Part shown: piece by piece, positions 4,028 to 50,427 of the stretch
How positions within the stretch are numbered: position 1 is the stretch's first letter
Layout of the letters: each line of letters starts with the position of its first letter
Source: an uncultured Thermomicrobiales bacterium
Lineage (GTDB): Bacteria > Chloroflexota > Chloroflexia > Thermomicrobiales > UBA6265
Assembly: GCA_902806325.1 (NCBI GenBank)
Contig: CADCWE010000201.1
Coordinates: 1,030-65,029 of the forward strand
Length of the DNA: 64,000 bases
Reading direction: 5' to 3'
The notes under the pieces: generated by a model
What the model saw: the letters and a program-made list of their open reading frames with translations, nothing else
Database searches by the model: none
What the model was told of the DNA's origin: nothing
Made by a program: the position numbers and the translations under genes

Positions 4028-4795
4028 ATGCGCTACGAAAACGCGGTCAAGCAGACGCTACGGGAGGGCGGCACGGCCTACGGCTGCTTCGTCACGATGC
4101 CGTCGCCGGAGATCGTCGAGATCTGCGCGGCGGCGGGGTTCTCGTTCGTGCTCCTCGACGCCGAGCACGGCCGGGTCAGCCCGGAAGCGGCCTACCCGAT
4201 GATCCTCGCCGCCGAGGCGAGCGGCATCGAAGCCTTCGCCCGAATCGGCCAAAACGACCGCCAGGTGATCCTCAAGTTTCTGGACCAGGGGATTGCCGGG
4301 GTGCTGATCCCGCAGACCAACACGGCGGAGGAGGCGACCCGCGCCGTCGAGGCGATGCGCTACCACCCGCTCGGGGTGCGTGGCCTCGCCGGCGGCCGCG
4401 GTTTCGGCTACGGCGTCGCCGGGGACGCCAAGGACTTGGTGCCCAAGATCAACGACCGGGTCCTGAGCATGGTCCAGTTCGAGCACATCGCGGCGCTGGA
4501 CCACCTGGACGACCTGCTGGCGATCCCGAATTTGGATCTCTTGTTCGTCGGGCCGAACGATCTGGCGCAGTCCATGGGTTTTCCGGGCCAGCCGGGGCAC
4601 CCCGAGGTGCAGGCGGTGATCGATCGGGTGACGAGCGCCGCGCGTGGCGGAGCGGTCGCCCTGGGCACGGTGGCACCGGACGCCGCGTCGACCCGCAAGG
4701 CCCAGGAACGCGGCTTCCGGCTCATCGTCAGCAACGTGCCGTCACTGCTGACCGCCGCCGGCCGAGACCTGCTGTGGGCCGCGACCGCGTCCTAG
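4028..4795 (+). CDS. HpcH/HpaI-family aldolase (2-keto-3-deoxy-acid aldolase type)
   Basis: This is the last 255 codons of track ORF 2975-4795, starting at the ATG at 4028. Motifs: FVTMPSPEIVEICAAAGFSFVLLDAEHG, IPQTNTAEEA, LLFVGPNDLAQSMG. Confidence 0.85.
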   Translation: MRYENAVKQTLREGGTAYGCFVTMPSPEIVEICAAAGFSFVLLDAEHGRVSPEAAYPMILAAEASGIEAFARIGQNDRQVILKFLDQGIAGVLIPQTNTAEEATRAVEAMRYHPLGVRGLAGGRGFGYGVAGDAKDLVPKINDRVLSMVQFEHIAALDHLDDLLAIPNLDLLFVGPNDLAQSMGFPGQPGHPEVQAVIDRVTSAARGGAVALGTVAPDAASTRKAQERGFRLIVSNVPSLLTAAGRDLLWAATAS

Positions 4796-4824
4796 CGCGA
4801 TCGCGCCGGGAAACCGGAGTGGGC

Positions 4825-4866
4825 AAAAAACGGGCGGGGGCGCTGAAGCGCCGCCGCCCGTTTCGG
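4825..4866. terminator. Bidirectional intrinsic terminator between convergent genes
   Basis: aaaaaaCGGGCGGGGGCGC-tgaa-GCGCCGCCGCCCGttt. A 14-bp stem with one mismatch, an A-tract on one side and a T-tract on the other. Confidence 0.6.
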
Positions 4867-4882
4867 TGTAATGCCCCGGGGT

Positions 4883-5149
4883 CTAGGCCCGGCTGGTGTT
4901 GCGGTTGTCGGCCGCCCGGATCACGTACAGGATGATCACGGCGCCGATCACCGCCACCACGATCGAGCCGATCAGGCTGGTCCCGGTGTTGGCGTCGAAC
5001 AGCGCGTCCATCAAGAAGCCGCCAAGGATGCCACCGAGGACCCCGATCACCAACGCCCCGATGGTGCCGCCGGGGGTTCGCCCCGGCACGATCAAGCTGG
5101 CGATCCCGCCCGCGATCAGCCCCACGATGAGCCAGAGAATGATGCCCAT
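4883..5149 (-). CDS. GlsB/YeaQ/YmgE-family small membrane (transglycosylase-associated) protein
   Basis: Starts at the ATG at 5149. MGIILWLIVGLIAGGIASLIVPGRTPGGTIGALVIGVLGGILGGFL... is the characteristic Gly-rich three-TM pattern. Confidence 0.85.
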   Translation of the reverse strand: MGIILWLIVGLIAGGIASLIVPGRTPGGTIGALVIGVLGGILGGFLMDALFDANTGTSLIGSIVVAVIGAVIILYVIRAADNRNTSRA

Positions 5150-5557: not shown

Positions 5558-7854
<2,297 letters not shown>

Positions 7855-47830: not shown

Positions 47831-48730
47831 GTGTCCCTCTGCCTGTATCGCGACCGCGACCGCGACCGCGACCCCGCGGACGCCGCCCCGGACGCCGCCC
47901 CGCGCCTCGGCCTGATCGCGGATAGCCGCGTCCACGACGTGGCCGCGGTCGGTGGACCGGCCACGATGGCCGAGGCGCTGGCGATGCCGCTAGGCGACCT
48001 GCGCTCCCGCCTGGGCGCCGTCCTGGACGCGGCCGGGGACACGGTGGCCCTGGCCGACGTCCGGTTGCTGGCGCCGGTGGATCGTCAAGAGGTCTGGGCG
48101 GCGGGCGTCACCTATCTCCGCTCCCGCGACGCCCGGATGGAAGAATCGACCGAGAAGAGCGTCTACGACCGGGTCTACGACGCCAAGCGGCCGGAGCTGT
48201 TCCTGAAAGCCACCCCGCACCGCGTGTCCGGACCCGGCGAGCCGGTCGCGATCCGCGCCGATTCGACCTGGGACGTGCCGGAACCGGAGCTGGCGCTGGT
48301 CCTCAACGCCGACGGGGAGACTATCGGCTACACCGTCGGCAACGACGTGTCGTCGCGCTCGATCGAGGGCGAGAACCCGCTCTACCTGCCCCAGGCCAAG
48401 GTTTACGACGCCTGCGCCGCGCTCGGCCCGACCGTCGCCCTGGCTTGGGATCTGTCCGACGTTTCCGACCTCGCGATCCGTCTTTCCATCCGCCGCGCCG
48501 GCGCGATCCACTTCGAAGGCGAGTCCTCAACGTCCCAGATCCACCGCCCGTTCGCGGACCTGGTCGGCTACCTGCGCCGCCACAACCGGTTCCCGCACGG
48601 CGTCGTCCTGATGACCGGCACCGGCATCATCCCGCCGCCGGAGTTCACCCTCGAAGACGGCGACGAGGTCCGGATCGCGATCGACGGCATCGGGGAGCTG
48701 GTCAACCCGGTGGTGCGGCCGACCGGATAG
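47831..48730 (+). CDS. Fumarylacetoacetate hydrolase (FAH)-family enzyme, KdaD-like (2-keto-3-deoxy-pentonate dehydratase type)
   Basis: GTG at 47831. EVWAAGVTYLRSRD..VYDRVYDAKRPELFLKATPHRVSGPGEPVAIRADSTWDVPEPELALVLN..GNDVSSRSIEGENPLYLPQAKVY resembles archaeal KdaD as I recall it. The last 33 codons are duplicated at 49698-49805. Confidence 0.85.
   Translation: MSLCLYRDRDRDRDPADAAPDAAPRLGLIADSRVHDVAAVGGPATMAEALAMPLGDLRSRLGAVLDAAGDTVALADVRLLAPVDRQEVWAAGVTYLRSRDARMEESTEKSVYDRVYDAKRPELFLKATPHRVSGPGEPVAIRADSTWDVPEPELALVLNADGETIGYTVGNDVSSRSIEGENPLYLPQAKVYDACAALGPTVALAWDLSDVSDLAIRLSIRRAGAIHFEGESSTSQIHRPFADLVGYLRRHNRFPHGVVLMTGTGIIPPPEFTLEDGDEVRIAIDGIGELVNPVVRPTG
48623..48721 (+). repeat. Direct repeat, left copy (functional 3' end of the FAH-family CDS)
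   Basis: 99 nt, 97/99 identical to 49698-49796. Confidence 0.95.
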
Positions 48731-48742
48731 GGATCGACGGCT

Positions 48743-49195
48743 CTAGCTCGCGTTGGTGGTGGGAAGCGTGATTTCTTCCCGGACCACAAGACCGAGCGCC
48801 CGAATCACCTCGCCGACGCGTTGGAGACTCGCCGCGGCGTAGTCCGTCGCCTCGTAGCGCTGGATCTGTTGTTCCTGGATCCCGAGCCGCTCGGCAAGCT
48901 CGCGTTGGGTCAACCCGACCGCGATTCGCGCCGCGATCAGGGCGTGGGGCAATCCCTCGAACGATTCGACCGCGAGCGTCGCCGGCCCCCCACGTTTCAG
49001 CGCCTCGTACTCCATGATCTCCCGCCGCAGATCGTGGATTTGGCTTTCGAGGGCATCGCGGTCGATCTGCTGGAACAGCTGGTCGTCCGAGTCGTCGGGA
49101 AACGTGCGCTGGCGGACTTCCGCCAAAGCATCCACGAAGCCGCCAAGTTGGCGCTTCGTGATCTGGTACTGTCGCTCATTCTTGATCATGGCCAC
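48743..49195 (-). CDS. XRE-family HTH protein with an N-terminal helical extension (antitoxin-like)
   Basis: 150 aa. C-terminal HTH IAARIAVGLTQRELAERLGIQEQQIQRYEATDY. N-terminus IKNERQYQITKRQL... is helical. The start overlaps the upstream gene by 10 nt. Confidence 0.8.
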   Translation of the reverse strand: MAMIKNERQYQITKRQLGGFVDALAEVRQRTFPDDSDDQLFQQIDRDALESQIHDLRREIMEYEALKRGGPATLAVESFEGLPHALIAARIAVGLTQRELAERLGIQEQQIQRYEATDYAAASLQRVGEVIRALGLVVREEITLPTTNAS

Positions 49196-49626
49196 GTCCT
49201 CAGGTCAAGGGCAACGATGCCTTTAGGTTCGCCCGTCTGCTTGTCGCTCTGGAAAAAACTGAGGAACGGTGATCCTGCGCTGTCGGCCACCGATTGCGCG
49301 CGAAACAGTTCGCCATGGTACTTTGCCTTCTGGGTCGCCCGTCCCGGATCGAACGTGCGTAGCGCGGGGTCGAGTCGTCTCGGATCGACGCCGGTGCTGT
49401 CCCAGCAGGCGTCAAAATCTCCCGGAATCGGCTTGGTAGTGACGAAGCTACCATCGACGTAGACGGTTCGGCACCCGGCCGCCTTGAGATCGGACAACGC
49501 CAGCCGGAGTCCGGCGAGCAACCGCCGCCGATGCTCGTTCGCCCCAAACCGGGTCACGAACTCGTCCCACGTTGCCCAATGGATTCCGGGTTGGAGGTTG
49601 CCGCCGGGATCGGCGTTCGGAATCAT
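49186..49626 (-). CDS. Small nucleotidyltransferase-like protein (uncharacterised family; putative toxin/effector)
   Basis: 146 aa. TVYVDGSFVTTKPIPGDFDACW fits the pol-beta NTase pattern G-S-x9-D-x-D. The promoter lies immediately upstream. Confidence 0.65.
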   Translation of the reverse strand: MIPNADPGGNLQPGIHWATWDEFVTRFGANEHRRRLLAGLRLALSDLKAAGCRTVYVDGSFVTTKPIPGDFDACWDSTGVDPRRLDPALRTFDPGRATQKAKYHGELFRAQSVADSAGSPFLSFFQSDKQTGEPKGIVALDLRTWP

Positions 49627-49632
49627 GACCCA

Positions 49633-49661
49633 ACTGTATCGTTGTGTATAGCGAGTGTCAA
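49633..49661 (-). promoter_or_regulatory. Sigma-70-type promoter of the cassette, probably giving a leaderless mRNA
   Basis: On the minus strand: TTGACA (49661-49656), a 17-nt spacer, then TACAGT (49638-49633). Only 6 nt separate the -10 element from the ATG at 49626, and there is no SD. Confidence 0.55.
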
Positions 49662-49697
49662 CGCCGGCAACCGGCAGTCGCCACCGCTCTCCCGCAC

Positions 49698-49805
49698 GGC
49701 ATCATCCCGCCGCCGGAGTTCACCCTCGAAGACGGCGACGAGGTCCGGATCGCGATCGACGGCATCGGGGAACTGGTCAATCCGGTGGTGCGGCCGGCGG
49801 CGTGA
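49698..49805 (+). repeat. Direct repeat, right copy: orphaned 3' fragment of the FAH-family CDS (..GIIPPPEFTLEDGDEVRIAIDGIGELVNPVVRPAA-stop)
   Basis: The 99-nt repeat spans 49698-49796, followed by gcg gcg tga. The stop at 49803-49805 abuts the stop (49806-49808) of the convergent gene. Confidence 0.9.
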
Positions 49806-50021
49806 TCAGGCCATCTTGAGGGACAACGCCGGGAGCGACGCGGTTTCGAGCGTCGTCAGATCCAGCTTCGCCGATGCCCGGTCGATGTCGATCCCGACCG
49901 CGTTGCCGTCCGCGTCGAAATCGACAACCAGCCCGTCGACGATCTCGCGCGCTTCTACCCCAGGGCGATCGACCAGGTCGATGTAGAGCGAATCGGTCTC
50001 GGGATAGTAGTGGAGTTTCAT
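49806..50021 (-). CDS. DUF2283-family small protein (antitoxin-like)
   Basis: ATG at 50021. MKLHYYPETDSLYIDLVDRPGVEAREIVDGLVVDFDADGNAVGIDIDRAS is the DUF2283 pattern. The rest of track ORF 49806-50399 is run-on. Confidence 0.75.
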   Translation of the reverse strand: MKLHYYPETDSLYIDLVDRPGVEAREIVDGLVVDFDADGNAVGIDIDRASAKLDLTTLETASLPALSLKMA

Positions 50022-50427
50022 CGAAATTGGTTCCTCACCGTTGCGGCGGAAGGACGAAGTCGCGATCGGGGAACGCATGGTGAACCGTTTCGCCATCTTC
50101 CAAGGTCCCGACCCGGAGGAGATGGCCGGGAAACTCCAGAACGGTTCCCCAAAACCCAGGCGCACCACCCCCTGCGGAGGGACGGGCGCTGCCGAAACAC
50201 CTGGTCCTCGAAGGACCGCGCCGTGTTGGTTTCGCCACCTCCATGGCTCATCTCCGATGTGAGCAAAGCGCGCGATTCCCTCGGCGGCCGTTCGAATATA
50301 GCGGTCCACGGGGTGTCGCCCGAAGCAACGTCCTTCGCCCTGGCCGCAACCTTGCGGAATCCGCGTGGGCGCGGTTGCCCGCGCGGGCGCCGTGGCCACC
50401 GGATCGGCAATGCGAAGGGGGAGACCA

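Follow-up and report, generated by a model that had tools for sequence, protein, structure and literature searches.

A DUF6932 and helix-turn-helix gene pair from a Thermomicrobiales genome: a mobile module with a predicted minimal nucleotidyltransferase

Introduction

AbiEii is one precedent for a toxin that is a nucleotidyltransferase (NTase), and in the HEPN-MNT modules the minimal nucleotidyltransferase (MNT) is the antitoxin, which AMPylates a tyrosine of the toxin. NTase toxins are also known from MenT (PMC10435456), and a toxin-antitoxin (TA) pair consisting of an Xre protein and an MNT has been described in Streptococcus suis (PMC8406773). PD-lambda-2, a validated abortive-infection system, is composed of a HigB-like protein A, an Xre-peptidase B, and a Beta-protein C (Vassallo et al. 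2022, PMC9519451). Here, we analyze a gene pair in which a small protein of the family DUF6932 is encoded directly upstream of a protein with an XRE-type helix-turn-helix (HTH). The pair lies in a stretch of 64,000 nt from an uncultured Thermomicrobiales bacterium (contig CADCWE010000201.1, positions 1,030 to 65,029 of the forward strand), which we call the window. A first-pass annotation, made from the letters of the window alone, had proposed a TA or abortive-infection module in which an NTase takes the place of the usual toxin. Judged from its sequence, the module is a real, self-contained, and mobile two-gene unit, predicted to be autoregulated, with the anatomy of a type II TA or abortive-infection system.

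Gene organization and obligate pairing

Both open reading frames of the first-pass annotation are present on the minus strand, where they cover 48743-49626. The upstream one, gene A (49186..49626, with its start codon at 49626), encodes a 146-aa DUF6932 protein, predicted to be a minimal Pol-beta-type NTase with G59, S60, D70, D72, and E106 as key residues. The downstream one, gene B (48743..49189), encodes a 148-aa protein with a helical hairpin (residues ~1-65) and an XRE HTH (residues ~77-131), the predicted autorepressor and neutralizer of the pair.

Two starts are possible for gene B, namely GTG at 49195 (150 aa, 10-nt overlap with gene A), which had been chosen in the first-pass annotation, and ATG at 49189 (148 aa, 4-nt ATGA overlap). 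The ATG is most likely the start, because it is the start called for this gene on the identical public contig, because a 4-nt A/B overlap is found in 72 of the 80 related loci described below, and because the N-terminus of the gene B product, MIKNERQY, is conserved from residue 1. The overlap indicates that the two genes are translationally coupled, as had been proposed, with the shorter ATGA overlap in place of the longer one.

We compared the window with 80 related genomic loci (81 close loci when the window is included), which represent at least seven phyla and come from Chloroflexota/Dehalococcoidia, Latescibacterota, Actinomycetota, Thermoanaerobaculia, Gemmataceae, Bacillota, Pseudomonadota, and cyanobacterial plasmids. 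As to whether homologues co-occur with an HTH partner, a question raised in the first-pass annotation, in 80 out of 80 related loci a full-length gene B homologue has its start where the DUF6932 gene ends or no more than a few bases away. The same A-B pair is seen within unrelated housekeeping contexts in metagenomic neighborhoods. Furthermore, the pairwise-identity matrices of A and B correlate with r = 0.80, a value that none of 999 Mantel permutations reached, and therefore both genes travel and diverge together. The A-B pair is an obligate, co-inherited two-gene module.

Gene A proteins sharing 58-68% identity occur in Actinomycetota, Chloroflexota, Latescibacterota, Cyanobacteriota, Planctomycetota, Bacillota, and Pseudomonadota, and DUF6932 homologues are carried by 28 plasmids. 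The module thus has the general features of a type II TA system, being made of two small, co-oriented, and coupled genes that form a conserved, mobile, and patchily distributed unit. It was found in none of 50,697 phage records and at only 8 loci in 2.9 million viral contigs, and we reject a phage origin on these counts. The sole close homologue on a viral contig (IMGVR_UViG_3300037420_002493; L181, 4438-4866; A 55% identical) has a partner that keeps the N-terminal hairpin motif, with a hydrophobic segment replacing the HTH.

Family and catalytic motif of the gene A product

The gene A product matches Pfam DUF6932 (PF22014) with an E-value of 1.2e-37 and 129.9 bits, for a gathering cut-off of 27 bits, and the match extends over positions 1-141 of the 142 of the model, which makes this protein a full-length member. 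DUF6932 is a catalogued but uncharacterized family, and the earlier statement that the 146-aa protein fits no characterized family was correct. All database relatives carry the annotation 'hypothetical', the NCBIfam scan of the 146-aa protein returned no match, and a literature search for DUF6932 and PF22014 found no mention of them. The family comprises 1889 representative clusters at 50% identity (E <= 1e-3), with at least 570 matches in a species-representative genome collection. The gene A product also matches the model of the PADLOC candidate PDC-M63A (E 9e-14), as a distant relative.

The sequence TVYVDGSFVTTKPIPGDFDACW of the gene A product includes G59-S60, nine residues, and then D70-x-D72 (D70-F-D72). 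In 92 family representatives, each taken from a different 50%-identity cluster, G59 is retained in 91, S60 in 91, D70 in all 92, and D72 in 91, and a third acidic residue (E/D) is present at position 106 in 89. The NTase signature with correct spacing, on which the first-pass annotation was built, is therefore present and near-invariant in the family. It corresponds to the Pol-beta pattern hG[GS] x9-13 [DE]h[DE]h followed by a third carboxylate on the next strand, with positions conserved to at least 97%, and distant members of DUF6932 show the canonical D-h-D-h form (SDIDIVIW, NDVDIIIF). This degree of conservation indicates that G-S...D-x-D is not a chance motif and follows the classical Pol-beta triad pattern.

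Predicted fold of the gene A product

In the AlphaFold2 model of the gene A product (pLDDT 92.9, pTM 0.88), we observe a helix (31-50), a strand (54-57), the GS pair, a strand carrying the DxD (71-75), a helix (96-103), and a strand carrying E106 (105-109), in this order. When the model is compared with the PDB using Foldseek, Pol-beta-type NTases make up the top 15 matches and 38 of the top 50, including AadA, ANT(9), ANT(4''), HI0073, MntA, Sulfolobus and other MNTs, Pol lambda, Pol beta, and the CCA-adding enzyme. When DUF6932 is aligned with actual MNT sequences by hhalign, VYVDGSFVTTKP-IPGDFDACW falls opposite VRVFGSVARGEAREDSDLDLLV, with GS...DxD in register. NTase is the only fold signal obtained for this protein, and no competing fold appears among the matches.

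The scores of these matches argue against the assignment. All Foldseek scores are weak (best E-value 0.37, TM 0.2-0.33), hhalign aligns DUF6932 with an MNT profile over no more than the motif segment (P ~0.02-0.03), and of the Pfam NTase models none matched any of the 92 DUF6932 members, not even at E <= 10. The MNT match hardly gained from a DUF6932 profile broadened by distant viral and plasmid members (P 0.031 to 0.019). The family profile matched no solved structure by sequence, and the search of BFVD viral structures with gene A was uninformative. The profile and structure searches suggested in the first-pass annotation thus side with an NTase as regards the identity of the top 15 PDB matches, but not as regards their scores. 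From motif evidence that is strong and match scores that are weak, we infer that DUF6932 probably has the NTase fold, and with similar confidence we regard the gene A product as a divergent minimal NTase, extended at the C-terminus and carrying an additional strand-helix at the N-terminus.

The partner protein

Pfam finds only HTH_3 in the gene B product (residues 87-135, E 6e-9). Its AlphaFold2 model, predicted with database homologues (pLDDT 91.9), begins with a long hairpin of two helices (5-27 and 35-65) and continues into a five-helix XRE domain, which bears out the helical N-terminal region and C-terminal XRE HTH recognized earlier. The XRE domain matches HipB, HicB, HigA2, and restriction-modification controller proteins (C-proteins) in Foldseek (probability 1.0, target TM <= 0.8), and no match was obtained for the hairpin. 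The association with HigA-like antitoxins made in the first-pass annotation is not a specific one, as this HTH is a generic XRE domain with HipB, HicB, and C-proteins as best structural matches; weak matches are also obtained to the capH and RmrA models.

Two segments of the gene B product are near-invariant across phyla, namely the N-terminal MIKNERQY-ITK-Q and the recognition helix KEQQIQRYEATDYASAS, of which KEQQIQRYE is invariant among relatives. The invariant tyrosines are Y8, Y112, and Y117.

Promoter and predicted operator

A promoter scan identifies, on the minus strand, a -35 hexamer TTGACA (49656..49661) and, after a 17-nt spacer, a -10 hexamer TACAGT (49633..49638), which together form the only sigma-70-like site in 48400-50300 and confirm the private promoter postulated for the pair. 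The -10 hexamer ends 6 nt before the ATG, which leaves space for neither a leader nor a Shine-Dalgarno sequence, so that the A-B mRNA is predicted to be leaderless, with transcription probably starting on the start codon. A predicted operator palindrome, ACACAA-N8-TTGGGT (ACACAACGATACAGTTGGGT, 49628..49647), lies across the -10 box, and a single nucleotide separates its end from the start codon. The window holds no other copy, for an expectation of 0.01 matches.

The same layout is common upstream of gene A in the other loci: a TTGACA -35 hexamer, a 17-nt spacer, a TAnnnT -10 hexamer, and the palindrome ACACAA-N8-TTGTGT over the -10, ending 1-2 nt ahead of the gene A start codon. When each half-site may carry one mismatch, 79 of the 81 close loci have the palindrome, and a -35-like hexamer, with one mismatch allowed, precedes it in 71. 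Among 752 kb of related loci the palindrome has 85 matches, 77 of which are at the promoter position. A palindrome that overlaps the -10 in 79/81 loci, together with an invariant recognition helix, would fit autoregulation of the type II TA kind, and we interpret the invariant helix and the invariant palindrome as a probable signature of tight autorepression, with the gene B product presumably binding DNA at the palindrome. Two cyanobacterial loci (L081 and L098) have two tandem operator copies, AACACAAC-AAAAAA-GTTGTG, ~27 nt apart and ~60 nt upstream of the A start (5001).

Insertion and mobility

The A-B pair and its promoter form 975 unique bases between the two copies of a direct repeat, which are 98% identical over 100 nt with a spacing of 1075 nt. 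Copy 1 (48622..48721) is the functional 3' end of an FAH-family gene (47831-48730, plus strand) and marks one edge of the cassette, and copy 2 (49697..49796), a duplicate of that 3' end, marks the promoter-side edge. The 100 nt are the last of the FAH-family gene, and both mismatches between the copies are at synonymous third-codon positions. Since the repeats duplicate the 3' end of the FAH-family gene, this gene stays intact. The GC content drops from ~0.72 to ~0.60-0.63 at the cassette, and the module is found in 0 of 77 loci with orthologues of the FAH-family gene. The exact pre-insertion site was not recovered among these orthologues, the closest being only ~70% identical. The repeat, the GC drop, and the absence from the 77 loci substantiate the inserted cassette of the first-pass annotation.

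Flanking repeats of other lengths bracket the module elsewhere: 222-248 nt with 96-98% identity in L022, L025, and L026 (~4708-4932 and 5965-6189), 62 nt with 89% identity in L034 (4883-4944 and 5848-5909), 29 nt with 100% identity in L085 (4879-4907 and 5877-5905), 24 nt with 92% identity in L064, and 28 nt with 89% identity in L069. Such brackets are found in 7/76 module loci versus 2/225 control pseudo-modules, and the upstream copy invariably ends 56-93 nt ahead of the start codon. Neither conserved cassette ends nor inverted repeats were found at the repeat junctions, and no recombinase is present in the repeat-bracketed cassettes. The variable length of the repeats (24-248 nt) argues against a duplication of the transposase type. 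Compatible routes of insertion would be the integration of a circle with target homology by a single crossover, or capture at a staggered break. The module is horizontally mobile, and the differing lengths of its target duplications give a hint of the way in which TA modules without a recombinase pass from one genome to another. No match was obtained when the locus was scanned with Rfam and for tRNAs, which rules out an RNA antitoxin of a known family and a tRNA integration site.

An orphan DUF2283 gene (49806-50021, minus strand, 71 aa, Pfam E 2e-14) adjoins the cassette, and beside it 50022-50400 holds ~400 nt of lower-GC sequence without a recognizable gene. DUF2283 proteins are often the small partner in DUF4258 TA-like pairs. 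This gene and the low-GC stretch may be what is left of a second module. A convergent DUF2283 gene is also found ~670 nt downstream in one FAH-orthologue locus (L102).

Related architectures

The short two-gene form without a peptidase is the commonest by far, being found in 73 of the 81 close loci. The other eight have a long partner of ~485-487 aa, in which the same hairpin and HTH are followed by an M78 (ImmA/IrrE) peptidase region. Downstream of long forms, DUF4186 and a radical SAM gene come next in a Dehalococcoidia genome, as they do on plasmids of Tolypothrix and Roseovarius. The long-form operons of L061 (5438-9799), L100 (3441-5550), and L179 (3911-6995) sometimes have a methyltransferase-like gene after the radical SAM gene.

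On plasmid pAt2788b of Agrobacterium fabrum (L099, 987-6355), a DUF6932 gene precedes homologues of PD-lambda-2 B (E 9e-74) and C (E 8e-37), and thus sits in the HigB-like first-gene slot of a PD-lambda-2-type operon. This gives comparative support to the idea, put forward in the first-pass annotation, of an NTase replacing a RelE-fold toxin. A reverse transcriptase and a helicase lie to one side of the operon and an sce7726-family gene to the other, a setting that suggests a defense island. In Acinetobacter NDM-1 plasmids, the pair is cargo beside the Tn7-like tnsD/tnsE; on the clinical plasmid pAC1633-1 of Acinetobacter baumannii (L178, 811-7846), DUF6932 and an ImmA/IrrE-family protein come directly after tnsD and tnsE, and upstream of IS30 and blaNDM-1.

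Discussion

We favor, with a probability of about 0.5, a reading in which DUF6932 is a minimal NTase effector that is restrained through the hairpin, and repressed at the palindrome, by the HTH protein. A sigma-70-type promoter would drive a leaderless bicistronic mRNA, whose first product, DUF6932, would be a Pol-beta-fold NTase with G-S...D-x-D...E as metal and NTP site, most likely transferring nucleotides to an RNA or protein target and so causing growth arrest. The gene B product, made by translational coupling via the ATGA overlap, would dimerize on ACACAA-N8-TTGTGT over the -10 and the transcription start, switching the operon off, and, via an N-terminal helical hairpin specific to its family, would keep DUF6932 inactive. 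The enzyme would then be freed if the partner were lost or titrated away, for example upon phage infection. Within this scheme, toxicity, substrate, trigger, neutralization by the hairpin, and the identity of the toxin are what we infer.

The pairing, the coupling, the promoter, the cassette, and the NTase signal all agree with the TA or abortive-infection module proposed in the first-pass annotation, but its NTase toxin is less secure, given the weak fold scores and a precedent with the opposite polarity. Several observations add to the fold scores in weighing against an NTase toxin. The toxic component of PD-lambda-2 is the Xre-peptidase B, and the upstream A rescues (PMC9519451). A toxin that is translated first and coupled 1:1 requires an extra means of producing an antitoxin excess, and none is visible here. 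Deletion of PDC-M63AB in its native host, E. coli NILS69, gave no phage-defense phenotype with ten phages. Finally, gene B of one locus (L095, 5438-5900) is deleted or frameshifted internally in the HTH region while gene A is apparently intact; the same metagenome-assembled genome holds a second complete copy (L039), and an orphaned A gene or an assembly error are both possible. We hold our reading at about even odds; PD-lambda-2 shows that the polarity can be reversed.

Such a reversal, which we consider possible though unlikely, would make DUF6932 a neutralizing or regulating enzyme in the manner of type VII systems, and the HTH protein the harmful or decision-making component, above all in the long forms that bear a peptidase; DUF6932 would nucleotidylate its partner, for example at Y8, Y112, or Y117, or otherwise counteract it. 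PD-lambda-2 B is toxic alone and rescued by A, and DUF6932 holds the A position in Agrobacterium. The HEPN-MNT modules provide a second precedent, with MntA and MNT structures among the Foldseek matches, and the tyrosines of the gene B product are invariant. The long XRE-M78 partner of 8/81 close loci also fits this arrangement. However, the partner in the window and in 73/81 close relatives has only the hairpin and the HTH, to which a toxic activity is hard to assign.

Alternatively, DUF6932 and the HTH protein could constitute a sensor-repressor switch for downstream cargo, comparable to CapH/CapP or ImmR/ImmA, of which the short form in the window would be a cargo-less, merely self-regulating remnant. 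The long-form loci run into conserved downstream genes (DUF4186 and radical SAM, or a Beta protein like PD-lambda-2 C), the operator and promoter are extremely conserved, and the HTH resembles the capH and RmrA models, if weakly. We nevertheless find a regulatory switch distinctly improbable, since the cargo-less form is the commonest (73/81) and is itself mobile as a ~1-kb unit, and since such strong conservation of the catalytic residues is unexpected in a remnant.

It is very unlikely that DUF6932 is not an NTase at all and that G-S/D-x-D has another role in an unrelated fold, for example the binding of a metal or ligand. No fold or profile score reaches significance, which leaves room for this explanation, but no competing fold emerges while the top 15 matches are all NTases, the three acidic positions and the GS lie on the elements expected for an NTase palm, and distant members have the classical D-h-D-h. 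A small-molecule or antibiotic-modifying NTase with its own repressor in a mobile resistance-type cassette, an alternative that Makarova et al. raised for MNT-HEPN modules (PMC2701414) and that agrees with AadA, ANT(9), and ANT(4'') being the best structural matches, is highly improbable, because the 146-aa protein is without the C-terminal substrate-binding domain of ANT and aligns over 45-120 columns of the NTase core only (TM <= 0.29), because resistance genes do not typically come with an obligate overlapping partner that has a dedicated interaction domain, and because the family is found mostly in uncultured environmental Chloroflexota.

If DUF6932 is a toxin, as we favor, it would join MenT/AbiEii and the MNTs as a third lineage of NTase toxins, one of far smaller proteins, and would show that an NTase can fill the HigB slot of XRE-type modules, including PD-lambda-2. 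We also advance, tentatively and as an unlikely extension, that DUF6932 founds a new clade of minimal NTase effectors with a new substrate and a recombinase-less spread as leaderless ~1-kb units that leaves target duplications of varying length (24-248 nt), in which the MIKNERQY hairpin is an adaptor that can be fused to HTH, HTH-peptidase, or PDC-M63B domains. The substrate might then be the repressor itself, through a tyrosine-nucleotidylation switch on its DNA binding, or a target other than the tRNA acceptor end. The obligate partner, the predicted 20-bp operator, the predicted leaderless promoter, and the candidate catalytic residues make this large family, present in many phyla, directly testable.

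Comparison with known systems

As in PD-lambda-2, the module has a small upstream protein followed by an XRE-HTH protein, and a DUF6932 relative holds the A position on pAt2788b. The A protein of PD-lambda-2, in contrast, is HigB-like and not NTase-like, and the window has neither the peptidase domain nor the C gene. Membership in PD-lambda-2 is rejected for these reasons, the window gene B being without a peptidase and the cassette without a C gene; the pAt2788b relative matches in B and C only.

PDC-M63 is a computational candidate, and the one test reported for it found no defense. Its A is homologous to the gene A product, and both are two-gene units with overlapping genes. True PDC-M63AB, seen on a viral contig (L183), has a homologous A (hhalign probability 99%) and a 311-aa B that is not an HTH protein. 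Whereas B of PDC-M63 is ~310 aa and without HTH, gene B of the window has no PDC-M63B match at E <= 1, and PDC-M63 proper is thus discarded despite the match of A (E 9e-14).

The MenAT and AbiE (DUF1814) systems offer an analogy, with an NTase-fold effector, a DNA-binding partner, and nucleotide transfer as the proposed chemistry (PMC10435456, PMC11375011), which the module may share. They differ in that the gene A product has no DUF1814/AbiEii sequence match and about half the size, in that the partner is an XRE HTH with a hairpin and not AbiEi/MenA, and in that the gene order is reversed. The lack of a DUF1814 match in Pfam or PADLOC, and a length of 146 aa versus ~300 aa, exclude membership in MenT/AbiEii.

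The HEPN-MNT modules and the Xre-MNT pair share with DUF6932 a minimal NTase of similar size with GS...DxD, and MNT structures are among the best Foldseek matches; the pair of S. suis also has an Xre partner. DUF6932 nevertheless matches no MNT Pfam model, its profile match is limited to the motif, and there is no HEPN partner. Membership in HEPN-MNT (PF01909/PF18765) is excluded, with 0 of the 92 members matching MNT models at E <= 10 and an XRE HTH as the partner. The S. suis pair differs in having the Xre gene first, as judged from its name only, and in an MNT that resembles kanamycin NTase.

With HigBA, the module shares a gene in the toxin position that comes first, an XRE-HTH protein that follows, and a palindrome at the promoter that is predicted to serve autoregulation, but the gene A product is without the RelE/HigB fold, the hairpin matches no solved antitoxin, and the HTH is closest to HipB. 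Rosmer (RmrT/RmrA) was also considered and set aside: the RmrA models match ~50 HTH residues only (E 5e-6), with no peptidase domain and no RmrT match.

NTase toxins of the MenT/AbiEii type and the Xre-MNT pair of S. suis (PMC8406773) were thus already known. What is new is the DUF6932 lineage, its dedicated hairpin-HTH partner, the leaderless operator design predicted for it, and the HigB swap in PD-lambda-2-type operons.

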